DNA of 64,000 nucleotides from Chloroflexota bacterium. GTDB lineage: Bacteria; Bacillota; Sulfobacillia; JBFLWA01; JBLNDB01. Below, piece after piece: positions 1,355 through 51,789 of the stretch. The stretch is from positions 2,161 to 66,160 of the forward strand of contig JBLNDB010000096.1 in the NCBI GenBank assembly GCA_050261235.1, written 5' to 3'. The number at the start of each line of letters is the position of its first letter. Position 1 is the stretch's first letter. Under the pieces are notes generated by a model. The model ran no database searches and was not told the DNA's origin. It saw nothing but the letters and a program-made list of their open reading frames with translations. A program made the position numbers and the translations under genes.

Positions 1355-1391
1355 GGACCGCTTGCCCCTGCCCGAGTCGGATCTGTCGCCG

Positions 1392-1430
1392 CAAGCCCGC
1401 CGTCGGTTGACGGCGGGCTTGCGTTGTCCG
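1392..1430 (+). terminator. Stem-loop after pyk (gcaagcccgccgtcggttgacggcgggcttgc) with a weak T tract
   Basis: A perfect inverted repeat was seen directly in the sequence, followed by gttgtcc. There is no strong U run, so intrinsic termination is uncertain. Confidence 0.4.
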
Positions 1431-1481
1431 GGCATACTAGCTGAGACAGAGAGACAGGCCAGACCGGGAAGGGTGTCCACG

Positions 1482-3215
1482 ATGAAGTTCTTCAGTGGAG
1501 TCAGGTTGCGGCTGCGCGGGCAGCCGACCACTCAGCGCAAGGAAGCTCCGCCGCCGGGCGCCGGGCGACTGACGCCGCGCGCCTGGAAGGTGCGACACGG
1601 GCGGCCGGCGGAGAAGCCCGCACCGGAAGGCCAACCGCTATCGCGGTCGCTCGCCGGCAATGTCGAGCGGTTGAAGGAGATGATGGGCCGCGACAACGCT
1701 GACGTCATCATCCGCAGGTTCATCATCGGCACCAAGCCATCCATCCAGGCAGCGCTGTTCTTCATCGAGGGGCTGGCTGACCGGACCACTCACATAGAAG
1801 GCATTATCAAGCCGCTGATGGTCCAGTCGACGCGCGAGGTCGGCATGGCCGCGCCCGATCCGCGCGAACTGGCCGAGGTCATCCAGTCGCAGTTGATGCC
1901 GACTGCCGAGGCCTTGACCGTGACGACTCTCGAGGAAGTCGTCGACCACGCGATGACAGGCGAGTCGGCGCTGCTCATCGACGGGGCCACCGAGGCCGTC
2001 ATCATCGAGACACGCGGCTGGAAGAGCCGCGGCGTCGAGGCGCCGGAGACGGAGATCTCCATCCGGGGCCCACGCGAGTCCTTCACGGAAGTGTTGCGGT
2101 TCAACACCGCGCTCATCCGCAGGCGCATCCGCGACCCGCGCCTGCGGCTGGACGGGATGAGAGTCGGCCGGATGTCGCGGACAGATGTCGTAGTCGGCTA
2201 CATCCACGGTCTGACCGACCCGGATCTGATCACGACCGTGAAAGAGCGCATCAAGGCGATCGAGACTGACTTCATCCCAGACAGCAGCTACATCGAGCAG
2301 TTCATCGAGGACAGACCATTCTCGCCCTTCCCCCAGGTGCAGTACAGCGAACGGACCGACCGCGCCACTGCGGCGCTGGCTGAAGGTCGCCTGATCATCA
2401 TCGTCGACGGGTCGCCGATGGTGCTGATCATCCCATCGACCTTCACGACTCTCATCCAGGCGCCGGAGGACTATTACGAACGACCGATCCTCGGCACGTT
2501 CTTCCGCATCATCAGAAGCCTGTCCGCGTTCATCTCGCTGACCCTGCCGGCGTTCTACGTCGCCATCACGTCGTTCCACCAGGAGATGCTGCCGACCGAG
2601 TTGATACTGGCGTTCGCCGCGGCCCGCGAGCGCGTGCCGTTCCCGGCCATCGTCGAGCTGCTCGTCATGGAGGTCTCGCTCGAACTGGTCCGCGAGGCCG
2701 GCCTTAGGCTGCCATCGCCGGCCGGGCAGACAGTCGGCATCGTCGGCGCGCTCCTGCTTGGTCAGGCGGCAGTCCAGGCTCAGATCGTCAGCCCGATCAT
2801 CGTCATAGTCGTGGCGCTGACTGCCCTGGCGTCGTTCGCGGTGCCGCACTACTCGACGGGGATCGCCATCCGCGTGCTGCGATTCCTGCTGCTGATCCTC
2901 GGTGCCACGCTCGGGTTGTTCGGCGTTACCGCGGGCATGACCGCGATAACCATTCACATGGCCTCCCTGACATCGCTCGGCACGCCCTATCTGACCCCCC
3001 TGGCGCCACTGCGGCCGCGCTCGGCGCTGCTTGACACGGTTCTCCGCGCGCCCCTCTGGCGGCAGGACCTGCGCCCGGGCTGGCTCCACCCGCGCGACGA
3101 CCGGCGCCAGGCCAGGATCACCAGGCCATGGTCCAGCACCGCTCCTGACGCGGCGGGCGGTGGCGGCAAGACAGGCGGCAGGAAAGGCGGCAAGAAGGAG
3201 AGACGGCGGTCGTGA
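1482..3215 (+). CDS. Spore germination protein, GerA/GerKA family (germinant receptor A subunit)
   Basis: Start ATG at 1482 is preceded by gggaagggtg. The body shows GerA-family architecture with a soluble N-terminal domain and a C-terminal membrane domain. The C-terminal tail is unusually rich in Gly, Lys and Arg. The 3' end overlaps the next gene (GTGA). Confidence 0.85.
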   Translation: MKFFSGVRLRLRGQPTTQRKEAPPPGAGRLTPRAWKVRHGRPAEKPAPEGQPLSRSLAGNVERLKEMMGRDNADVIIRRFIIGTKPSIQAALFFIEGLADRTTHIEGIIKPLMVQSTREVGMAAPDPRELAEVIQSQLMPTAEALTVTTLEEVVDHAMTGESALLIDGATEAVIIETRGWKSRGVEAPETEISIRGPRESFTEVLRFNTALIRRRIRDPRLRLDGMRVGRMSRTDVVVGYIHGLTDPDLITTVKERIKAIETDFIPDSSYIEQFIEDRPFSPFPQVQYSERTDRATAALAEGRLIIIVDGSPMVLIIPSTFTTLIQAPEDYYERPILGTFFRIIRSLSAFISLTLPAFYVAITSFHQEMLPTELILAFAAARERVPFPAIVELLVMEVSLELVREAGLRLPSPAGQTVGIVGALLLGQAAVQAQIVSPIIVIVVALTALASFAVPHYSTGIAIRVLRFLLLILGATLGLFGVTAGMTAITIHMASLTSLGTPYLTPLAPLRPRSALLDTVLRAPLWRQDLRPGWLHPRDDRRQARITRPWSSTAPDAAGGGGKTGGRKGGKKERRRS

Positions 3216-16939: not shown

Positions 16940-16974
16940 GATTGCGGAGCGATCCGCCAACCGAATAGAGTCAG

Positions 16975-17060
16975 GCCGCTAGGGGAGCTGCAAAGCTGAG
17001 ACGCGGGACACCGCAAACCCTTGGGACCCGAACTGGATAATACCAGCGTGGGGAAGTGGC
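16975..17060 (+). ncRNA. TPP (THI-box) riboswitch
   Basis: Carries the conserved THI-element blocks: CTAGGGGAGCTG...GCTGAGA...ACCC...GAACTGGATAATACCAGCGTGGGGAAG. It lies upstream of a ThiT-like ECF S-component gene. Confidence 0.8.
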
Positions 17061-17081
17061 GATCGATAACAAGACCGCAAA

Positions 17082-17110: not shown

Positions 17111-17171
17111 CCTGTCCATGGCCGCTTTATCTCCGGCGGGGGAAGCTACCAACCGCGAAGGGGGATTCGTG

Positions 17172-17726
17172 ATGCGCAACCAGAGAGTGAGAATGGTCGT
17201 CGAAGCAGGGATGGCGATCGCGCTCACAGCCATCCTGCACCAGATCAAGGTCTATCAGATGCCGTTCGGCGGTGCGGTGACCGCCGGATCGATGATCCCG
17301 CTGCTGATCATCGCTCTCCGCTGGGGCCCGGGAATCGGCATGATCGCGGGCGCCGCCTACGGACTGATCGACTACATGTTCGAGCCGTGGTTCCTCACAC
17401 CCTGGCAGTTCCTGCTCGACTACCCGGTTCCGTTCGCCCTGCTCGGTCTGGCGGGCCTGCTGCGGCGTCAGCCGTACCTCGGCGTCGCGCTCGGCGTCGC
17501 CGGGCGTTTCGCCTCGCACCTGCTGTCCGGCGTCATCTACTGGGCGGCCAGCGCCGACCAGGTTCAGGCGGGGATGAACCCGTGGGTCTACTCCGCCATC
17601 TATAATGGGCAGTACCTGATTCCCGAGCTGATCCTTGCGCTGGCTCTGCTCGCCGCCCTGATGCCGACCTTCCGCCAGCAGGGCTTCCTACTGCCGGCGG
17701 GGCAGAGGCGCGGCGGCGCGCGGTAG
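17172..17726 (+). CDS. thiT: ThiT/YuaJ-like thiamine transporter (ECF S component)
   Basis: Six-TM protein of 184 aa sitting directly behind a TPP riboswitch. The ATG at 17172 is 7 nt after GGGGG. Confidence 0.75.
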   Translation: MRNQRVRMVVEAGMAIALTAILHQIKVYQMPFGGAVTAGSMIPLLIIALRWGPGIGMIAGAAYGLIDYMFEPWFLTPWQFLLDYPVPFALLGLAGLLRRQPYLGVALGVAGRFASHLLSGVIYWAASADQVQAGMNPWVYSAIYNGQYLIPELILALALLAALMPTFRQQGFLLPAGQRRGGAR

Positions 17727-21128: not shown

Positions 21129-21312
21129 GCAACTCCTCCCATGCCTGGCAGAAACCCGGACGCCCCGAGTGGGCATCCGGGTTTCGCTGCCTCAGGGGTT
21201 GTTCCGCCGTCCCTCCCCAGGCGCTGGTCGGCGCCGTCGCGTGAAGGTTTCGCCGACACCGCCGGTGAAATACTGAGGGAGTTCACAGTCTGACTCACCG
21301 GGGGTGACCCGG

Positions 21313-24003
21313 ATGGCCAGGAAAGCCATCTTCATCGACGGCAACAGCCTCATCAACCGTGCCTATTTCGCGGTGCGCCCGCTGACCAACTCACAGGGCC
21401 AGATGACCAACGCGGTCTACGGGTTCGTCACCATGCTGCTGCGGCTGCTCCGCGAGGAGAAGCCCGACTATCTGGCAGTCGCCTTCGACAAGAGCAAGAT
21501 CAACTTCCGCCACAGCGAGTACCAAGCCTACAAGGCCAACCGCACCGGCATGCCCGATCAGTTGGCCTCACAGATGCCGTTGCTCAAGGATGTCCTGCGG
21601 GCATTCCGGATTCCGATCTACGAGATCGACGGCTACGAGGCCGACGATGTCCTCGGGACGCTGGCCCGCCAGACTGCGACCAGCGATCTCACGGTGCTCA
21701 TCCTGACCGGCGACCGCGACGCGCTGCAGTTGATCGATGACCGGACGAACGTGTTGTTCACGCTGAAGGGGATCTCCGACCTCAAGCGGTATGACGCCGC
21801 AGCGCTGCGGGCCGACTTCGACCTCGCGCCGGCACAGATCATCGACCTCAAAGCCCTGATGGGGGACAAGTCCGATAACATCCCCGGCATCCCGGGCGTG
21901 GGCGAGAAGACGGCGCTCAAGCTCCTGCACGACTTCGGCAGCGTCGACAGCGTCCTCGACCACGCTGACGAAGTCGCCGGCGAACGCCTGAAGGCGTTGC
22001 TCCGTGAGCACGCCGACGCGGCCCGGTTGTCCAAACGCCTCGCGACAATCAAGTGCGATGTGCCGATAGCTGTCGACATCGACGCCGCCGCGGTGGACGA
22101 GCCGGACTACCCGGAGTTGCTGCGCGTGTTCCGTGAGCTGGAGTTCCGCGGCCTGATCGACCGCCTGAACCTTGAGGCGAAGGCCGGTGTCGATGCGTCT
22201 GCCGCCGCGGCACCGCCCGCGGCGCCGGTCGAGGTCAGCGTCGTGGCGTCCGCAGAGGAGTTGGCGCGCCTCGGCGACTCACTGCGGCATGGCTTTGCGC
22301 TCCAAGTGGTCCCCGGAGCGGGCCATCCGGTCGAAGGTCGCATCAGCGCGATCGCGCTGGCGCCGCTCGCCGGTTCGGGCGAGACGGTGACGATCGTGTC
22401 GCTGACCGAACCGGAGGCCGATCTGTTCGCGCCCCGCGGGCTGTCTGCGGCCGAAGCCGTTCGCGTCCTGAGACCGTTGCTTGAAGATGCCGCTGTGGCA
22501 AAGGTCGGGTACAACCTGAAGCCAGGCCTGCTCGCCCTCCGGCGTCACGGTTGCGAGCTGCGCGGCCTCGTCCACGATGCCGCCATCGCTGCCTACCTGC
22601 TCGATCCGACACGCGCGACGTATCGCCTCGAGGACCTCGGGCGAGAGTACCTCGGCGCTGAGCTGCCGGCCGAGCTGCACGGCGACACGACTGCGCTCGC
22701 TGCGCGTACTGCCGCCCTCGTCAAACTGCAGCCCCTGCTGGAGCGGCGTCTCGCCGACAATGGTCTCGCCGAGCTGTTTCGGACCATGGAGACGCCGCTG
22801 CTGGGGGTCCTCGCGGCGATGGAGTATGAGGGCGTCGCGATCGACCGCCAGCGGTTGCTCAAGATGGGTGACGAGTTCGCGGCCCGGCTCGTCGAGCTGA
22901 CGGCCGACATCTACCGCCTCGCCGGCGGCGAGTTCAACATCAACTCGACGAAGCAGCTGGGCGAGATACTGTTCGTCAAGCTCGGGCTGCCTGCCGTCAA
23001 GAAGACCAAGACGGGCTTCTCGACTGATGCTGAGGTCCTCGAAGCGCTTGCCGCCAATCACGAGATCGCCGCCAAGCTGCTCGAACACCGGGCGCTCTCG
23101 AAACTGAAGAGCACCTACGTCGACGGTCTGGCGGCGCTCGTGAGCCCGCTGACCGGGCGCGTCCACACGACCTTCCAGCAGACGGTGACGGCGACCGGAC
23201 GCCTCTCCAGCACCGAGCCGAACCTGCAGAACATCCCGATCCGCGATGAGCTGGGGCGCCGCCTGCGACTGGTGTTCGTGCCCGACAGCCCGGACAAGCT
23301 GATCCTGGCAGCCGATTACTCGCAGATCGAACTGCGCATTCTGGCGCATCTGAGCGGCGACGCCTACATGACCGACTCGTTCCTGCGCAACCAGGACGTC
23401 CACCAGCGTACGGCCGCCGAAGTGTTCGGTGTCAGGCTGGAGGACGTTACCCGCGACATGCGCGCCCGAGCCAAGGCCGTCAACTTCGGCATCGTCTATG
23501 GCATCAGCGACTTCGGCTTGGCGCGCCAACTCGGGATTCCGCGGGCGGAGGCGGCGCAGTACATCGCGACCTATTTCGAGCGATACGGCGGTGTCAAGGA
23601 CTACATGGACCGGACCATCAGCCAGGCCCGCGCCCAGGGCTACGTCACGACCCTGTTCGGCCGTCGCCGCCTGCTGCCGGATATCGACAACCGCAACCGC
23701 AACGTCCGCCAGTTCGCCGAGCGCACTGCGATCAACACGCCGATCCAGGGCACGGCGGCGGACATCATCAAACTCGCCATGATCAGCATCGACCGGCGAC
23801 TGCGCGCTGAGAAGCTCAGGTCGAAGATGATCCTTCAGGTTCATGATGAGTTGATTTTCGAGGTCGAGCGCGACGAGCTCGACGCGATGAAGCGCCTCGT
23901 CCGCGACGAGATGGAGGGCGTCGTCAAGATGAGCGTGCCCTTGCTGGTCGATGTCAAGGTGGGTCCGAACTGGTACGACGTCAAGGGTATCGCGGTCGAC
24001 TGA
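21313..24003 (+). CDS. polA: DNA polymerase I
   Basis: 5'-3' exonuclease N-terminus (AIFIDGNSLINRAYFA) and polymerase motifs A, B and C (DYSQIELR, RRAAKAVNFGIVYG, HDELIFE). The ATG at 21313 was chosen over GTG at 21304. Confidence 0.9.
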   Translation: MARKAIFIDGNSLINRAYFAVRPLTNSQGQMTNAVYGFVTMLLRLLREEKPDYLAVAFDKSKINFRHSEYQAYKANRTGMPDQLASQMPLLKDVLRAFRIPIYEIDGYEADDVLGTLARQTATSDLTVLILTGDRDALQLIDDRTNVLFTLKGISDLKRYDAAALRADFDLAPAQIIDLKALMGDKSDNIPGIPGVGEKTALKLLHDFGSVDSVLDHADEVAGERLKALLREHADAARLSKRLATIKCDVPIAVDIDAAAVDEPDYPELLRVFRELEFRGLIDRLNLEAKAGVDASAAAAPPAAPVEVSVVASAEELARLGDSLRHGFALQVVPGAGHPVEGRISAIALAPLAGSGETVTIVSLTEPEADLFAPRGLSAAEAVRVLRPLLEDAAVAKVGYNLKPGLLALRRHGCELRGLVHDAAIAAYLLDPTRATYRLEDLGREYLGAELPAELHGDTTALAARTAALVKLQPLLERRLADNGLAELFRTMETPLLGVLAAMEYEGVAIDRQRLLKMGDEFAARLVELTADIYRLAGGEFNINSTKQLGEILFVKLGLPAVKKTKTGFSTDAEVLEALAANHEIAAKLLEHRALSKLKSTYVDGLAALVSPLTGRVHTTFQQTVTATGRLSSTEPNLQNIPIRDELGRRLRLVFVPDSPDKLILAADYSQIELRILAHLSGDAYMTDSFLRNQDVHQRTAAEVFGVRLEDVTRDMRARAKAVNFGIVYGISDFGLARQLGIPRAEAAQYIATYFERYGGVKDYMDRTISQARAQGYVTTLFGRRRLLPDIDNRNRNVRQFAERTAINTPIQGTAADIIKLAMISIDRRLRAEKLRSKMILQVHDELIFEVERDELDAMKRLVRDEMEGVVKMSVPLLVDVKVGPNWYDVKGIAVD

Positions 24004-43714: not shown

Positions 43715-43796
43715 GTCGGAGTGGCGGAATTGGCAGACGCGTACGTTTGAGGGGCGTATGGAGGAATCCGTGCGGGTTCAAGTCCCGCCTCCGACA
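43715..43796 (+). tRNA. tRNA-Leu (anticodon GAG), copy 1
   Basis: Acceptor GTCGGAG/CTCCGAC, anticodon loop TT-GAG-GG, variable arm TGGAGGAATCCGT. A hairpin with T run follows. Confidence 0.9.
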
Positions 43797-43967
43797 CAAG
43801 AGTGCCTCCTCTTCCCGATTCGGGAAGAGGAGTCTTTTTCATTCCTGCGCCGCGGCAACGAGCTGCGGCGACTGAATTCTCCGCGCGGCGAGCGAGCCTG
43901 CAGGGGGAATCGCTACGTGGGGCGAACTATATCTCGCGGTACGGCAGCTGGCAGGAGGCATGGTCGC

Positions 43968-45356: not shown

Positions 45357-46916
45357 ATGAGTAAAGTTAACGCGGGTCGGCGCCTCTGAAAACAGGAACG
45401 AGACGGTTCCTCTCCGAAGGTGTAAGCGCCAACAAACACCCTAGGGAAGAGGGGACCCATCTCGTCATGGCGGATTTCAACGAACTCGTCGCAGTATCCT
45501 TCTCAGAGCTTGAAAGAACGCTGTTCGAAGGCTTGACCAAGTTGTTCCTCGAGGCCATGACGGAGCTGCTTTCAAGGCTTGATGCTCAGGTCGCTGGGAA
45601 GCGTGACAAGCAGCGGTATGTAATCGTTGAACGCAAGGAGACGTGCCTTGAAACCATGCTCGGGCCTTTGCGCTTCCGCCGGCGTGTTTACCTGGACCGG
45701 GAGACGGGAGAACGGGTCTACGGGCTGGACGAGGCGCTTGGACTGACGAAACGTGCCAGGGTGAGCCCGGGGCTGAAGGAAGCCGCAGTGAGGGAAGCCG
45801 TTGAGGCACCGTCGTACCGCGCGGCCCGGGACAGTCTCGAGCGCAGGCATGGCCAGCGGGTGATGAGCCACGAGACCATACGGCAGCTGACGCTGAAGAC
45901 CGGGAAGGAGATACAGCGTGCTGACGAGGCTCTGGCGCTTGAGCCCAATGGCGAGCGGAAGATCCCGGTGCTGTTCATCAAGGCGGATGGGCTGTACGTG
46001 TCAAGGCAGAAGGCAGGCAAGCGTGAAGAGCGGTTCGTCATAGCGCATGAAGGCTGGCAGCGCAGGAGCCCTGGCAGCGAAGAATACGAGCTCGTGAACA
46101 AGACGTACATACACTGCGACTCGGCCGGTGACGTCTGGGAGCAGGCGAGCCGGATGCTGTTCGCCAGATACGACCTCAGCGACACAGTTGTCGTCGTCAA
46201 TGGCGACCGCGCCAAGTGGATCCGCGAGGGAGTGCGGTACTTCCCGAAAGCCATCTACCAGTTTGACCGGTTCCATCTGCTGCGGGATGTCAAGGCGAAA
46301 CTCAGGCTGGCACCGCAGGCAAGGAAGGAAGTGCTCCAGGCTATACGTGACGGAAGGTCGCGGGATGTGCTCGATCTCATGCACAAGGTGAGACTCAGTG
46401 ACGGAAAGCTAAACGCGAGCTCGACGAACTGAGGCGCGACTTGCAGCGCTTTCCCGAGGCGATGGTGGACTACCGTGTGCGGCTGGCGATGATGGGCTTG
46501 GATACGGCCGGCATGCGAGGTATGGGCTCGGCTGAGTCCAACATGAACCACTTGGCGCGCCGACTGAGAAAGCAAGGCCGCAGCTGGTCCAGAAACGGCT
46601 TGAGAGCAATGATCCGGGTGATGATTAAGCTCTTCGAGGGCACGCTGCACCGCTTCACGCAGAGCCTGATGGACATCACGGAGCACCTGGATGCAGAGAT
46701 GCTGCTGACCGGCGCAGGCCGGATTGTGCAGGCGGCTCTGGACAAGGCGAGCTACGTCGCGGGCAAGACGTACCGGATGCCGATTCGACAAGCTGGAAGC
46801 AACGTGTCGCGTGGTCTCTCTGAGTTCATGAACCGTCTGAACCGAGCACTGCCGGCGCAGTTGGCCTAGCAGACCTCAAACGCAACACTTCGGGAAGGAA
46901 CGGCGCCGACCCGCGT
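45357..46916 (+). mobile_element. IS element, ISLre2 (UPF0236)-like, about 1.56 kb with imperfect terminal inverted repeats
   Basis: Left end TTAACGCGGGTCGGCGCC (about 45361-45378) is the reverse complement of the right end GGCGCCGACCCGCGTTTG (about 46897-46914). It encloses one transposase reading frame split in two. Confidence 0.6.
45467..46869 (+). pseudogene. ISLre2-family transposase interrupted by a single frameshift near 46415-46432
   Basis: ORF 45467-46432 (321 aa) and ORF 46441-46869 (142 aa) together make roughly 460 aa, the length of an ISLre2/UPF0236 transposase. The second frame reads through ...RKAKRELDELRRDLQRFPEAM... directly after an in-frame TGA. The break lies at GGAAAGC, consistent with a 1-nt indel in an A run. 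It is not a slippery heptamer. Confidence 0.65.
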
Positions 46917-46989: not shown

Positions 46990-47071
46990 GTCGGAGTGGC
47001 GGAATTGGCAGACGCGTACGTTTGAGGGGCGTATGGAGAAATCCGTGCGGGTTCAAGTCCCGCCTCCGACA
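46990..47071 (+). tRNA. tRNA-Leu (anticodon GAG), copy 2
   Basis: Identical to copy 1 except for one base in the variable arm (GGAGGAAT versus GGAGAAAT). It has its own promoter (TATCAT -10) and terminator hairpin (gcctcctccttctgctcgcagggggaggc). Confidence 0.9.
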
Positions 47072-47233
47072 CCGGTAAAGCCTCCTCCTTCTGCTCGCAG
47101 GGGGAGGCTTTTGCTTGCTCGACGGCTCGGCTGAAACCAGAAGCTCACCTGCGCTGTACTTGAATGGTCATGATTGTGCGTGACGCGGTCCGGAACCGCG
47201 CCGCTGGCAAAGCGGCGCAAGGGAGCGAGATCA

Positions 47234-48319
47234 ATGAGCGAAAACCAGTCGTTACTCGATTACCTCGACAGATCCATCGGCGCGTTGTTTCACGACGCCT
47301 GGCGCGTCACCGGCGGCAATCCGGCGCAGGCAGCTTTCTTCCTGAAAATGCTCCGCTGGCAGGAGCAGGCGGGGCGCACCCGTCGCAAGTGGGAAGCCGA
47401 GGGCGTCCACGTCCCGCCCTTCCTGATCGCCAGCATCACACATCGCTGCAACCTGCAGTGCGTCGGCTGCTATGCCCGGGCTCAGCACCGCCGGGATGAA
47501 CCCGAGCTCAGTCCGGACAAGTTCCGCAGCGTGCTCGGTGAGGCGAGCGAACTCGGCGTTGGCATGGTCCTGATCGCCGGCGGCGAGCCCCTGACCCGAC
47601 CCGAGCTGTTGTCGGTCTGCGTCGAGTACCCGCGGCTGATGTTCCCGCTGTTCACCAACGGGATGCTGATCGATGACCAGCGAGTCGCCTTTTTCAGGCG
47701 GCACCGCAATTTGATGCCGGTCATCAGCATCGAGGGCCACGCCGGCGAGACGGATGGCCGCCGCGGCGCGGGAGTCCACCAGCATGCACTGGCGTTGGCG
47801 CGGCGGCTCAAGTCCGAGGGTGTCGCGTTCGGGATGTCGTTGACCGTGACCGCCGCCAACTGCTCGACAGTCACGGACCGGTCGTTCATAAACGATCTCA
47901 TCGACCGCGGCTGCCGCCTGTTCTTCTTCGTCGAGTACGTTCCCGTTCAGGAGGGAACCGACGCGCTGGTCCTGGCAGCCGGACAGCGGCTCGCCTTGCG
48001 GGCCGCGGCGGCGGACTTCCGCGCCCGCCTGCCGGGGCTGTTCATCACCTTCCCCGGCGATGAAGAAGAGGCCGGTGGTTGTCTTGCCGCCGGTCGGGGC
48101 TTCGTTCACATCAGTCCGGCGGGGCGCGTCGAGCCGTGCCCATTCGCCCCATACTCCGACGCCAGCCTGACCGAGATGTCCTTGAAGGACGCGCTGCAGT
48201 CGAATCTGCTCAGCGCGATCCGCGCGAACCACGACCAACTTCGCGAGACCAGATCCGGGTGCGCGCTCTGGGAGAGACGCGACTGGGTCAGGACGCTGCT
48301 CCCCGGTGGCGGGGAATAA
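47234..48319 (+). CDS. Radical SAM enzyme (CxxxCxxC) with a C-terminal Cys-containing extension, possibly SPASM/twitch-like; function unknown
   Basis: Radical SAM cluster motif ITHRCNLQCVGCY, the GGEPL glycine-rich SAM motif, and C-terminal cysteines (GGCLAAG...VEPCPF...SGCALW). An N-terminal extension of about 60 aa precedes the core. The ATG at 47234 follows aagggag. Confidence 0.8.
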   Translation: MSENQSLLDYLDRSIGALFHDAWRVTGGNPAQAAFFLKMLRWQEQAGRTRRKWEAEGVHVPPFLIASITHRCNLQCVGCYARAQHRRDEPELSPDKFRSVLGEASELGVGMVLIAGGEPLTRPELLSVCVEYPRLMFPLFTNGMLIDDQRVAFFRRHRNLMPVISIEGHAGETDGRRGAGVHQHALALARRLKSEGVAFGMSLTVTAANCSTVTDRSFINDLIDRGCRLFFFVEYVPVQEGTDALVLAAGQRLALRAAAADFRARLPGLFITFPGDEEEAGGCLAAGRGFVHISPAGRVEPCPFAPYSDASLTEMSLKDALQSNLLSAIRANHDQLRETRSGCALWERRDWVRTLLPGGGE

Positions 48320-48332
48320 GCAGGAAGACAGG

Positions 48333-48369
48333 CCGGGATGCAGAAATATACTGCATCCCGGTTCCTTTT
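48333..48369 (+). terminator. Strong rho-independent terminator (ccgggatgcag-aaatatact-gcatcccgg then ttcctttt)
   Basis: An 11-bp perfect stem and a T-rich tract, 14 nt after the radical SAM stop codon. Confidence 0.75.
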
Positions 48370-48871
48370 AAGTCAAAAAGCAGGATATCGATCGCCCGGT
48401 TTTTCGTCATTCTTGCAGCTAGTCGCACTATTTCCGCCATTTGTCAGCACAAAGTTCGCCAAACTCGACACCGCTCAGAAGGATATCCGAGTGGCTGGGC
48501 GAATATTAGTCCTCACCAAAGCTTCGAAAAGTGTGCCATATGTGGACGGTGGCTAATTAGCCCAGATTGGTCAATACATGGATATGAATTCGAGTTCGGA
48601 GAGCTGGTCCCGGCGCGTTTGAGGTGATTGTTGAATGGATGCGCTCTATCGTCAGAAACGCACTTCTCAGCCAATCGCACCGCGTCGACAGACTCCGATT
48701 TTTGATTTGCCGAAAGGGGGGTGAGAACGGCAGGCCATGTGTAGGTCCACCGGACCGCTGGTCTTTGCCGGATCAGTCGAAAAGCCAGGAAGGCAGGCGG
48801 TACTCATCGTGTCACTGCTGACCCTGACTCCCACTCAGGTTTCCCGGAAGAACTAGGGAGGAGGTGCTTCC

Positions 48872-49654
48872 TTGACTCTGCTCGCCAAGAATCAGTCAAC
48901 CACGTTCATTCTCGAGCTCCTGTTCTGCATCGGGTTGTTGCTGATGATCTCCCGTGCACGCGCAGGCAAGAAGGTCCCTGAGATCCGTAAGGTCAATGGT
49001 CTCGACGCTCTCGACGAAGCCATTGGTCGCGCCACTGAAATGGGCCGGCCGGTGCACTACTCGCCGGGTATCGGTGACCTCTCGAACTCCCAGACCCTCG
49101 CTTCGTTCTCACTGCTGGCCTACGTCGCCCGCATGTGCGCGAAGTACGACACCCGCCTCATCGTCACCAGCCGTACCGTTACCGTTACGCCGGTCATGGA
49201 AGAAATCGTCAAGGCTGCTTACACCGACATGAACAAGGCGGACAACTACAACCCGAACGACGTCCGCTTCCTGTCTGACGACCAGTTCGGTTACGCCTCT
49301 GGTTGCGTCGGTATCATGCAGCGCGAACAGGTCGCGGCCAACATTCTGTTTGGTGCGTTCTGGGCCGAGTCGCTGATCTTCGCCGAAGTCGGTTCGCAGA
49401 GCGGCGCCATTCAGATCTCCGGTACCGCCAACACCGCGCAGATCCCGTTCTTCGTCGCGGCTTGCGACTACACCCTGCTCGGCGAGGAAATGTACGCCGC
49501 CAGCGCTTACCTGTCACGTGACCCGGTTCTCGTCGGTAACCTCGTCGGTCAGGACTGGGGCAAGTGGTTCGCTGCGGCCGTCATCGCCGTTGGCGCCATC
49601 CTCGCCACCATCAACCCGAAGTCCAATCCGCTGTCCACTTGGCTCCTGAAGTAA
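48872..49654 (+). CDS. Hypothetical bitopic membrane protein (N-terminal TM, extracytoplasmic domain of about 190 aa, C-terminal TM); cluster gene 1
   Basis: TTG start 7 nt after GGGAGGAGG. No recognisable family. The codon usage is NNT/NNC-biased and differs from the window average (frequent cgt, ggt, gct, tct, acc), and GC is lower. Confidence 0.65.
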   Translation: MTLLAKNQSTTFILELLFCIGLLLMISRARAGKKVPEIRKVNGLDALDEAIGRATEMGRPVHYSPGIGDLSNSQTLASFSLLAYVARMCAKYDTRLIVTSRTVTVTPVMEEIVKAAYTDMNKADNYNPNDVRFLSDDQFGYASGCVGIMQREQVAANILFGAFWAESLIFAEVGSQSGAIQISGTANTAQIPFFVAACDYTLLGEEMYAASAYLSRDPVLVGNLVGQDWGKWFAAAVIAVGAILATINPKSNPLSTWLLK

Positions 49655-49680
49655 CCCCGAGCGAACGGAGGTGAGACGTT

Positions 49681-50301
49681 TTGCGTAAAGAAATTCCGCT
49701 TCTCATCACTTTGCTGGCTGGTCTGATTTACGTCATTGCTAACTTCTTCAGCGTTCCCATCGCGACGTCGGCAAAGAACACCCTGGATAGCTGGTTCCTC
49801 ATTTCTCAGGCGTTCGCCGTTCTGCTTGGCGTAACCAACCTGACCCTGATCCATCTGCGCAGCATCTCAACCCGCCGCACGGGTTGGGGCTTCAGCGTCG
49901 CGCTTCTCGTCTCGATGTACACCGTCATGATCTACGGCGCGTTCAAGACCGCTACGGATCCGTTCTTCAACACCATCTTCTTCAAGTCCATGATCAACGC
50001 GCTGTCAGGCACTATGTTCTCCCTGCTCGTGTTCTACATCACGTCGGCTGCCTACCGCGCGTTCCGCATTCGCTCGTTCGAGGCCTCGCTGCTCCTCATC
50101 ACGGCAGTCATCATCATGCTCGGCCGTGCTCCGGTCGGCGACCTCATCTCGCCCTGGCTCCCGAAGGCCACTAGCTGGCTGCTCGACATCCTTAACGTTG
50201 CAGGTATGCGCGGCATTCAGATCGGCGCTGCTCTTGGCGGTATTGCCACCGCGTTGAGAGTCGTCGTCGGTATCGAGCGCGCCTACCTTGCCGGCGAGTA
50301 A
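49681..50301 (+). CDS. Hypothetical polytopic membrane protein (about 5 TM helices, 206 aa); cluster gene 2
   Basis: Hydrophobic helices read directly. No recognisable family. Same codon bias as gene 1. Confidence 0.65.
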   Translation: MRKEIPLLITLLAGLIYVIANFFSVPIATSAKNTLDSWFLISQAFAVLLGVTNLTLIHLRSISTRRTGWGFSVALLVSMYTVMIYGAFKTATDPFFNTIFFKSMINALSGTMFSLLVFYITSAAYRAFRIRSFEASLLLITAVIIMLGRAPVGDLISPWLPKATSWLLDILNVAGMRGIQIGAALGGIATALRVVVGIERAYLAGE

Positions 50302-50314
50302 GGGAGGTACACGC

Positions 50315-51148
50315 ATGAACTTCTTTGACAGACTGCAGAAGATCGACCGCCGTGTCCTCTACGTCCTCCTCGCGATCGTGGTCACCTACGCTACGATCAA
50401 GCCGATGGGTCTGCCGATCAAGATCGGTAAGGAAACCCAGCAGACCTACGATTTCATCAACAATCTGCCGGCCGGCAGCACCGTCGTTCTGATGTTCGAC
50501 TATGGCGCTGACGCCATGCCGGAACTCCACACCAACGCTCTGGCCATTGGCAAGCTGCTCTTCTCCAAGGGCCACAAGGTCATCGGCGCTGCCATGTGGA
50601 ACACCGGCTCCGGCATGCTGAACATGTTCTTTGAGACCATGACCAAGGAGTTCCCGAACCTCGTCGAAGGCACTGACTGGGTCAACGTCGGCTACAAGCC
50701 GGGTGGACAGGTCTGGGCAGAAAAGACGACTGTCGACTTCATCGAAGCCTGCGCCGGCGTTGACGCGAACGGCAAGCCGCTCGCCTCGATGCCGATCTTC
50801 CAGGGCATCAAGACCTCGGCTGACACCGACCTCTTCATCGACCTCGCGGCCGGCAACCCCGGCATCGAAGAGCTGATCAAGACCGTCGGCGCCAAGGGCA
50901 CCCCGATCATCGGCGCGGTTACCGCCGTTTCCATCACTGGTCAGCTGCCGGCCCTCCAAGCTGGTCTGATCAAGGGCCTGCAGATGGGTATGCGCGGCGC
51001 CGCCGAAATGGAGCTCCTCGTCAACCGTCCGGACAAGGCTATCGCTGGCATGGACGCTCAGTCCCTTAGCCACGTGCTTCTCATTCTCTTCATCCTGCTC
51101 GGCAACATCGGCTACCTGGCCACCAGGCAGTCGGGCGCTAAGCGTTAG
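50315..51148 (+). CDS. Hypothetical bitopic membrane protein, a distant paralog of cluster gene 1; cluster gene 3
   Basis: The ATG at 50315 follows AGGGAGG. Same layout as gene 1 (TM, globular domain, TM) with scattered colinear similarity: HYSPGIG/FDYGADA, FAEVGSQSGAIQISGTANTAQIPFF/FIDLAAGNPGIEELIKTVGAKGTPII. Confidence 0.65.
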   Translation: MNFFDRLQKIDRRVLYVLLAIVVTYATIKPMGLPIKIGKETQQTYDFINNLPAGSTVVLMFDYGADAMPELHTNALAIGKLLFSKGHKVIGAAMWNTGSGMLNMFFETMTKEFPNLVEGTDWVNVGYKPGGQVWAEKTTVDFIEACAGVDANGKPLASMPIFQGIKTSADTDLFIDLAAGNPGIEELIKTVGAKGTPIIGAVTAVSITGQLPALQAGLIKGLQMGMRGAAEMELLVNRPDKAIAGMDAQSLSHVLLILFILLGNIGYLATRQSGAKR

Positions 51149-51162
51149 GAGGTGACACGACC

Positions 51163-51789
51163 TTGACAATGGAACAAGTCGGCGTTTGGATCGCCGCTGC
51201 TCTGACCCTGGCTCTCTACAGCTTCCTGTGGAAAGAGAACCCGGTCTATCGTCTGGCTGAGTACCTCTACGTCGGTATGGCTGCCGGTTACGGCGTCGTC
51301 GTCACCATCGACAGCTATATCCGCCCGACGATCAAGAACGACCTGATGACCGATGGCAAGTGGCTGCTCCTGATCCCGATCTGCCTCGGTCTCCTGGCCT
51401 ACGCCCGTTTCGTCAAGCCGATCGCGTTCCTCGCCCGCTGGACGATGGCGTTCTGGCTCGGCGTCGGCGCCGGTATGGTTCTGACCCGTGACTTCCGCCC
51501 GCAGTTCATCGTCGCGTTGACCGCTACCTTCAAGCCGCTCTTCGTGGCCGGTAAGGTCGGCGTCAGCATCAACAACATCCTGCTCGTCGTCGGTGTCATC
51601 ACCTCCCTGATGTACTTCTTCTTCACCACGAAGCGCACCGGCATCATGGCCGGTGGTGCGAAGATCGGTCGCTGGGTGATGATGGTCGCCTTCGGCGCTG
51701 CCTTCGGCAACACCGTTATGGCCCGCGTCTCGCTCTTCCTCGGCCGCATGCAGTTCCTGCTCATCGACTGGCTCAAGGTCGTCAAGTAG
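51163..51789 (+). CDS. Hypothetical polytopic membrane protein (about 6 TM helices, 208 aa), a probable counterpart of cluster gene 2; cluster gene 4
   Basis: TTG start 7 nt after GGAGGTGA. Intergenic gaps are tight (13-26 nt), implying one operon together with genes 1-3. Confidence 0.65.
   Translation: MTMEQVGVWIAAALTLALYSFLWKENPVYRLAEYLYVGMAAGYGVVVTIDSYIRPTIKNDLMTDGKWLLLIPICLGLLAYARFVKPIAFLARWTMAFWLGVGAGMVLTRDFRPQFIVALTATFKPLFVAGKVGVSINNILLVVGVITSLMYFFFTTKRTGIMAGGAKIGRWVMMVAFGAAFGNTVMARVSLFLGRMQFLLIDWLKVVK

Follow-up and report, generated by a model that had tools for sequence, protein, structure and literature searches.

A predicted sigma-H-type promoter and a conserved 42-nt block in the AT-rich spacer upstream of a DUF6754 membrane-protein operon

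The closest described counterparts of the promoter discussed here are the sigma-H promoters of Bacillus and Clostridioides, such as those of spoVS, spoVG, spo0A (Ps) and spoIIA. The sigma-H consensus is given in PMC8510167 as RNAGGAWWW for the -35 element and RNNGAATWW for the -10 element, and PMC12456013 places AGGA and GAAT 17-18 nt apart, i.e. with 11-12 nt between the nonamers. The mapped SigH promoters of C. difficile quoted in PMC7438776 (Table 3) have the same spacing, and their transcription starts 8-9 nt after GAAT. The forespore factors sigma-F and sigma-G of B. subtilis have the consensus GTATA / GGNAANAMTR (PMC3416734). A third group of systems, the riboswitches and leader attenuators, resembles our locus in having a long 5' leader before a membrane-protein operon.

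The spacer in front of the DUF6754 operon shares with the known sigma-H promoters the same nonamers, the 11-nt spacing and an endospore-forming host. It differs from them in that the DUF6754 cassette is no known member of the regulon, the host belongs to a high-GC, deep-branching and uncultured lineage, and the leader is unusually long.

The spacer, its promoter and a conserved upstream block

The window, which is the whole stretch of DNA that was analysed (64 kb), contains a 552-nt non-coding interval (48320-48871) reaching from the stop codon of a radical SAM/SPASM gene (48319) to the TTG start codon of a DUF6754 gene (48872). Its GC content is 52.7%, compared to 64.8% for the window on average, 66.3% for the radical SAM gene and 59.9% for the operon; no other 552-nt stretch of the 64 kb has a lower GC content, and only 0.12% of stretches of this length are equally low. 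The size and the AT-rich character of the gap, as described in the original prediction, therefore hold, but the figures of 48% against 68% GC do not: 47% is reached within the spacer only at 48400-48599. The repeat gatcgcccggttttt, listed in the same prediction, turned out to be single-copy, and a repeat search of the spacer yielded only short repeats (10-20 nt, 80-91% identity), which are at chance level and are not conserved in relatives.

In our judgement the spacer likely controls transcription of the DUF6754 operon, in a host that belongs to the endospore-forming Bacillota. Overall it is an ordinary bacterial control region: behind a terminator come a probable operator and a sigma-H-type promoter, followed by a largely neutral, long leader and a strong ribosome-binding site. 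The features are the following:

47234-48319, + strand: radical SAM/SPASM gene, 361 aa, with the Pfam domains Radical_SAM, Fer4_12 and SPASM; upstream neighbour, outside the unit
48331-48369, + strand: intrinsic terminator, a 13-bp stem (8 G-C pairs) with a 7-nt loop at 48331-48363, then TTCCTTTT
48415-48456, + strand: block A, GCAGCTAGTCGCACTATTTCCGCCATTTGTCAGCACAAAGTT, 42 near-invariant nucleotides at about -98 to -57 from the predicted start; putative regulator site
48440-48453, no strand assigned: palindrome TTTGT-N4-ACAAA within block A, unique in the 64 kb
48478-48486, + strand: sigma-H-type -35 element GAAGGATAT (consensus RNAGGAWWW), kept in the relatives L007, L006, L102, L018 and L183
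48498-48506, + strand: sigma-H-type -10 element GGCGAATAT (consensus RNNGAATWW), 11 nt after the -35 nonamer
48507-48527, + strand: start-proximal block, consensus TAAGTCCTCACAAAAGCTTCG, 71-81% identity in L007, L006 and L102
48509-48515, + strand: predicted transcription start, by analogy with the mapped C. difficile SigH starts applied to the GAAT that ends at 48504
48513-48871, + strand: predicted 5' UTR of about 360 nt, in which 48528-48695 is unconstrained filler
48786-48800, + strand: 15-nt island CAGGAAGGCAGGCGG, 73-93% identity, the GGCAG of which can pair with CUGCU at 48813-48817
48845-48871, + strand: translation initiation region, an invariant CCGGAAGAACTA, then the Shine-Dalgarno sequence GGGAGGAGG (48856-48864) and a 7-nt spacer
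48872-51789, + strand: four-gene membrane operon, DUF6754 gene at 48872-49654 and membrane proteins at 49681-50301, 50315-51148 and 51163-51789

The radical SAM/SPASM gene has no NCBIfam equivalog and is called in the identical contigs L001-L003. The terminator hairpin begins 12 nt past its stop codon, has the make-up of an intrinsic terminator and contains a perfect 11-nt inverted repeat (I2). The textbook terminator proposed earlier at 48333-48369 was thus recovered, as a stem-loop and T tract, at 48331-48369. Transcription of the radical SAM gene would end at this hairpin and its T tract, and the terminator shields the operon from transcripts initiated further upstream.

Both published sigma-H (Spo0H) nonamers and their spacing are matched in full, with 17 nt from AGGA to GAAT, equivalent to 11 nt between the nonamers. 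The pattern AGGAWWW-N11-12-RNNGAAT occurs a single time in the 64 kb, while 0.06 matches are expected by chance. A sigma-70 scan of the spacer found no credible promoter, the lone match lying inside the terminator hairpin. From these matches we infer that the promoter is of the type read by sigma-H, the stationary-phase and sporulation sigma factor: RNA polymerase carrying sigma-H, which acts in the transition state and early sporulation, would recognise GAAGGATAT-N11-GGCGAATAT at 48478-48506, with a predicted transcription start near 48512. The observations of the original prediction did not include a sigma-H-type promoter.

Endospore formers carry sigH. The window itself encodes a GerA germination gene (1362-3215), and the relatives of its DNA polymerase I are all Bacillota (Symbiobacteriia, Thermincolia, Peptococcia and Clostridia), which leads us to regard the host as an endospore former; the presence of sigH in it is deduced from this taxonomy. 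The deposited records encoding proteins identical to those of the window are named 'Chloroflexota bacterium'.

Relatives of the locus were fetched via the DUF6754 protein. Contigs with an identical protein have a spacer that is 100% identical and are hence uninformative for conservation. The informative clade consists of L007/L008, L006, L102, L018, L183 and L182, the proteins of which are 79-89% identical, and the fourfold synonymous sites of the adjacent genes (59-61% identical) serve as the neutral yardstick. The sigma-H motif is kept throughout this clade, in six diverged lineages that include L007, L006, L102, L018 and L183, despite diverged spacers and different sequences between its two elements.

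Block A stands far above this yardstick. With the window as reference, its 42 positions carry one mismatch in L007, two in L006 and three in L102; in L018, which has tRNA-Leu upstream, similarity over the block falls to 45%. The core GCAGCTAGT retains its distance of 64-65 nt to AGGA even in L183, a more distant relative. No second copy of block A was found in the window. The one base of the palindrome that varies among the relatives (C, G or T) falls in the N4 spacer. Judging by this conservation block A is probably an operator for a regulator, and its position from -98 to -57 is typical of a transcription-factor site. Many sigma-H promoters carry activator or repressor sites for Spo0A or AbrB, which the conserved site 5' of the -35 element recalls here. 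A clade-specific regulator would bind block A, possibly jointly with a second half-site near the transcription start: compared by eye, the start-proximal block, with the related stretch at 48509-48524, looks similar to the 3' end of block A, GTCAGCACAAAGTT, and could form the other half of the operator.

Several known sites were tried as an identity for block A and rejected. It has no match to the TGTCGAA box of Spo0A (best 5/7), and comparison by eye, with consensus sequences taken only partly from papers, gave no acceptable match to a sigma-70, sigma-E, sigma-K, sigma-F or sigma-G promoter or to a SpoIIID site. The enrichment of 0A boxes near sigma-H-type promoters is weak and is confounded by the -10 element.

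The leader of the operon

The transcript would carry a leader of about 360 nt, mostly neutral, with constraint in the 15-nt island and the last 30 nt. A significant rise of leader identity is indeed limited to the CAGGAAGGCAGGCGG island and these last 30 nt. The stretch 48528-48695 is 33-38% identical to the relatives compared to 53-61% at fourfold sites, and in L183 about 150 nt of the middle of the leader, as well as the GGCAG stem, are absent. Since the middle is less conserved than synonymous sites and about 150 nt of it can be missing, the leader consists mostly of unconstrained filler with a few short conserved islands. The blocks in the 3' part of the leader show some conservation to which the promoter-based explanation assigns no function.

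The large regulated 5' UTR suggested by the original prediction is consistent with this architecture, as the sole recognisable promoter lies about 360 nt before the start codon; the riboswitch or attenuator mechanism suggested along with it is not. One could argue that the leader holds a clade-specific cis-regulatory RNA, which binds a protein or a ligand or sequesters the Shine-Dalgarno sequence, and which controls the operon beyond the promoter. Such an RNA would account for the conserved 3' island and for its GGCAG/CUGCY stem, 5 bp with one compensatory change (in L102), as well as for the 12 invariant nucleotides 5' of the Shine-Dalgarno sequence and for the potential pairing of UAGGGAGG with CUUCCUUG, which would span the start codon. 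It would also fit the distance from GAAT to the start codon, and with it the leader length, which is kept at 356-367 nt in five clade lineages. However, the RNA-level data go against it. Rfam gave no match in the spacer when the whole window was searched at the gathering score, and at E <= 10 on the spacer it returned noise only; the best hit there, which overlaps the terminator, scores 17.8 bits where the gathering score is 44. The TPP riboswitch detected by Rfam at 16971-17071 served as internal positive control, and among the loci of five relatives Rfam found tRNA only and nothing in the leaders. The 374-nt leader has a minimum free energy of -120.9 kcal/mol and folds worse than its shuffles (z = +1.09), and the local hairpins are no more stable than shuffles either (z = -0.35, -0.93 and +1.8, the second value being that of the GGCAG/CUGCU hairpin). 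RNAalifold on five to six leaders gave a weak consensus fold with one or two compensatory pairs and a covariation term of +1.16 and -0.28 kcal/mol, i.e. close to zero or unfavourable. No conserved intrinsic terminator was found between the promoter and the start codon; the only attenuator candidate is a stem of 5 bp (48744-48756) followed by a weak T tail, and the segment around it is either deleted in L006, L102 and L018 or cannot be aligned with them. Together with the unconstrained middle (about 170 nt) and with the lineage that lacks both much of the leader and the stem, these data make a cis-regulatory RNA unlikely. In contrast to riboswitches and attenuators, the leader matches no covariance model, is not unusually stable, shows neither covariation nor a terminator/antiterminator pair, and is mostly neutral.

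The end of the leader agrees better with what had been proposed. The strong ribosome-binding site at the end of the interval is present, with the Shine-Dalgarno sequence GGGAGGAGG placed 7 nt before TTG 48872 and invariant in relatives. The initiation region as a whole is 97-100% identical in L007, L006 and L102 and 77% identical in L018. A hairpin pairing the Shine-Dalgarno sequence with the start codon is not more stable than shuffles, the region being less structured than these (z = +1.8). Translation would start at TTG 48872, behind a very strong Shine-Dalgarno sequence.

Promoter motifs across the DUF6754 family

The first gene of the operon encodes a protein with Pfam domain DUF6754 (E = 4e-97), and the content and order of the four genes are identical in relatives. 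For the other three proteins no Pfam, NCBIfam or PADLOC family was found, and sequence comparison of two of the four proteins with the PDB gave no match. The structural model of the DUF6754 protein (pLDDT 85) combines a transmembrane helix with a Rossmann-like alpha/beta domain and C-terminal helices, and it has no significant structural match. A literature search returned no paper that mentions DUF6754. The four-gene cassette has more than 6,500 homologues and no solved structure; it is widespread in Bacillota and several candidate phyla. The control region described here offers a regulatory handle on this dark-matter operon of four membrane proteins.

Could the sigma-H match nevertheless be a chance one in a plain AT-rich spacer, the operon being driven by an unrecognised nearer promoter or by read-through? 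The motif was first noticed in the window sequence and the test was formalised afterwards, and one match also turned up in each of six out of 100 shuffled versions of the window. However, the family-wide enrichment is independent of the way in which the motif was found. In a sample of 150 non-redundant DUF6754 loci, from genomes and metagenomes, we searched for AGGA-N16-18-GAAT within 450 nt upstream and found 39 matches on the coding strand, as opposed to five when the other strand of these regions is read (binomial p = 7e-8). The remaining 1.48 Mb contain 82 matches, which corresponds to about 3.7 expected. The enrichment is thus 8- to 11-fold and confined to the coding strand. The aligned matches also show an extended consensus, (A/G)(A/C)AGGA(A/T)TT ... 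CGAATAT, and the locus of Symbiobacterium thermophilum (L036) carries AGGAGTTCGGTGGTCTTTACCGAAT 75 nt upstream. The retention of both motif and position in the six diverged clade lineages likewise speaks against chance.

A nearer promoter would fit the observation that the implied UTR of about 360 nt is longer than at other DUF6754 loci, where GAAT precedes the start codon by 33-210 nt (about 208 nt in L183), and that a sister clade has a different motif close to the gene. On the other hand, no other promoter-like site was detected in the spacer, and read-through is blocked by the strong terminator. We therefore regard a plain spacer with a fortuitous motif as improbable, and retain the sigma-H-type promoter as the one that would serve the operon.

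In the sister lineages (77-83% protein identity) the spacers are short, about 90-360 nt, and lack the sigma-H motif; they contain instead a conserved G[CT]AT[TC]-N15-GG(T/A)TATTCTA located 21-59 nt before the start codon, which resembles the sigma-F consensus. In the window the invariant GGAAGAACTA (48846-48855) fits the -10 consensus of sigma-F/sigma-G with one mismatch. In contrast to the forespore promoters, however, the window clade has no -35 element at any allowed spacing, and a transcript started from GGAAGAACTA would begin inside the Shine-Dalgarno sequence. GGAAGAACTA is probably a vestige or simply a part of the ribosome-binding region. As the sister clade has a sigma-F-like motif in place of the sigma-H one, promoter usage in the DUF6754 family appears to be labile; both arrangements, as read from their motifs, would tie the cassette to stationary phase or sporulation.

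The modestly new point is the apparent control of the DUF6754 cassette by sigma-H across endospore-forming Bacillota: sigma-H-type promoters precede it in at least 39 lineages, with a sigma-F-like promoter in the sister clade. The promoter logic of sigma-H, AGGA-N17-GAAT, also extends to an uncultured, high-GC lineage that branches deeply. Tentatively, we would go one step further and propose that the cassette may belong to the sigma-H regulon of endospore-forming Bacillota, as a widely conserved member that has so far gone unrecognised, that the sister clade may have switched to a forespore sigma-F-type promoter, and that in the clade of the window a new regulator may bind the 42-nt block through TTTGT-N4-ACAAA. 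The sigma-H prediction can be tested in cultivable carriers of the cassette, e.g. Symbiobacterium thermophilum.

Origin and coding potential of the spacer

The clade members share a long upstream region homologous to that of the window, and this homology begins abruptly at 48415, i.e. at the first nucleotide of block A, irrespective of the gene that lies further upstream: a radical SAM gene in the window and in L007, an MFS transporter in L006 and tRNA-Leu in L018. In L102 the contig ends upstream of block A, and the block conservation starts abruptly as well. The 10 nt preceding block A are unrelated between relatives. An nhmmer profile of the leader, run against 181 loci, matched only upstream of DUF6754 genes of the window's own clade and found no distant homologues. 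Since homology sets in at 48415 whatever the upstream gene and the profile matches only before DUF6754, the leader belongs to the operon and is not debris of upstream rearrangements.

It was also considered that the spacer is the scar of a horizontal acquisition or of mobile-element activity, or else a platform for a nucleoid-associated protein. Both ideas start from its rank as the lowest-GC stretch of the window, and the former could further draw on the split transposase and the duplicated tRNA-Leu situated 1.3-4.6 kb upstream, as well as on the varying gene 5' of the leader. Yet the rearrangements stop at block A, from where all clade members are collinear with the operon; BLAST of the spacer against plasmid and phage collections found nothing, there are no terminal repeats, and 52.7% GC is only moderately AT-rich. 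The leader travels with the operon, and an acquisition scar finds no support in these comparisons. The conserved 42-nt block, for its part, points to a sequence-specific regulator rather than to a nucleoid-associated protein, at least as far as conservation can indicate. Taken together, we judge these two readings to be very improbable, and the spacer is best read as the control region of the operon.

With regard to coding potential, the spacer ORFs of at least 20 aa in all six frames were compared with relatives and with Pfam and rejected, as the apparent matches, which appear on either strand and in more than one frame, only mirror the DNA conservation of block A. An ORF on the minus strand with its ATG at 48440 (M-x-x-x-x-x-LAA in relatives) was rejected as well: its similarity stops after nine codons, it has no ribosome-binding site, and the two differences that separate L006 from the window each fall on a second codon position and are non-synonymous.

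The ORF with four cysteines (48639-48821, + strand) had been put forward as a possible small-peptide gene. Its ATG at 48639, its four cysteines and the GAGGTGA 11 nt upstream are as described, but with the stop codon at 48819-48821 it encodes 60 aa, not 61. Comparison with relatives rules it out as a gene. The homologous site has no start codon there and the cysteines are not conserved; against L007, indels of 1, 4, 4, 2 and 1 nt break the frame, and the substitutions are evenly spread over codon positions 1, 2 and 3 (19/21/28). The ORF has no Pfam match and is not called by gene callers in L001-L003. That it nonetheless encodes a small cysteine peptide, possibly the substrate of the radical SAM/SPASM enzyme encoded next door, is hardly credible, because L007 keeps the enzyme gene yet not the ORF, its start or its cysteines, the stretch is present in L006, L102 and L018, where no radical SAM gene lies beside the operon, and the terminator separates the ORF from the enzyme gene. 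By all appearances the four-Cys ORF is a chance ORF of a GC-rich genome, and a false small-protein candidate is thereby removed.

Putative promoter sequences of the DUF6754 operon in the sister lineages and in the window clade

The spacers upstream of the DUF6754 operon in the sister lineages (77-83% protein identity) are short, approximately 90-360 nt, and lack the sigma-H motif. These lineages harbor a conserved G[CT]AT[TC]-N15-GG(T/A)TATTCTA located 21-59 nt 5' of the start codon, and one of them reads GGACAGTATA at this site.

Window 48872-51789, and related loci L023-L181: DUF6754 cassette, four uncharacterised membrane proteins
L010:882-911: sister-lineage sigma-F-like motif
L013:41-70: sister-lineage sigma-F-like motif
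L017:1962-1991: sister-lineage sigma-F-like motif
L184:10-39: sister-lineage sigma-F-like motif

The motif is similar to the sigma-F consensus GTATA/GGNAANAMTR. Since the same sequences served to define the pattern, its enrichment among them is not an independent test. The similarity suggests that the promoters of the DUF6754 operon have been switched between sporulation sigma factors across the lineages.

A sequence of related appearance is present at 48846-48855 of the window, where the invariant GGAAGAACTA, lying immediately 5' of the Shine-Dalgarno sequence of the DUF6754 gene, differs from the sigma-F -10 consensus GGNAANAMTR by one mismatch. No -35 element was found at a suitable spacing from it, and transcription started from it would begin inside the Shine-Dalgarno sequence. 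Possibly it is left over from the promoter of the sister clade, or it belongs to the ribosome-binding region.

Two further details of the window clade were observed. A second AGGATAT (48382-48388, within AGCAGGATATC) is located 98 nt 5' of the -35 element of the predicted sigma-H-type promoter; a GAAT is missing 17 nt 3' of it, and the relatives do not keep it. The related locus L183 (81% identity) reads TTT, within 400-410, where the conserved TTG start codon of its relatives stands, and therefore the gene caller took a later start, giving a protein of 243 aa. The TTT reflects a sequencing error or else a mutation of the start codon.

Distribution and modeled structure of the DUF6754 cassette

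Homologues of the cassette number more than 6,500, often with two or three copies per genome, and beyond Bacillota they occur in WOR-3, Cloacimonadota, Eisenbacteria and further candidate phyla. The AlphaFold model of DUF6754 (pLDDT 85) predicts a membrane-anchored Rossmann-like domain, for which the PDB gave no significant match. No paper in the literature mentions DUF6754.

Radical SAM gene and the tRNA-Leu pair

47234-48319: radical SAM/SPASM enzyme gene
43715-43797 and 46990-47072: tRNA-Leu(GAG), two copies
45467-46432 and 46441-46869: split UPF0236-family transposase

The radical SAM/SPASM gene adjoins the DUF6754 operon only in the window and in L007. Its top NCBIfam matches (AhbD, PqqE, NirJ and mycofactocin maturase) are all far under the cut-offs with no equivalog-level assignment among them, the PADLOC pVip matches are weak, and no candidate for a substrate peptide was found beside the gene.

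The two tRNA-Leu(GAG) copies share 99% identity, the repeat is confined to the 83-nt tRNA, and between them lie an MFS_3 transporter gene and the split transposase. In L018, a locus of the window clade, the same tRNA-Leu stands directly 5' of the DUF6754 leader. Therefore, the radical SAM gene, the insertion sequence and the second tRNA-Leu copy of the window reflect local rearrangement.

Host phylum

1362-3215: GerA spore-germination gene
21304-24003: DNA polymerase I

The records with proteins identical to the DUF6754 protein and the DNA polymerase I of the window are named 'Chloroflexota bacterium'. The named relatives of this polymerase (50-54% identity) all belong to Bacillota, namely Symbiobacteriia, Thermincolia, Peptococcia and Clostridia. 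Judged by these relatives and the GerA gene, the Chloroflexota label is probably wrong.

A TPP riboswitch at 16971-17071 (+ strand), which scores 71.4 bits where the gathering score is 54.3, precedes the ORF at 17118-17726.
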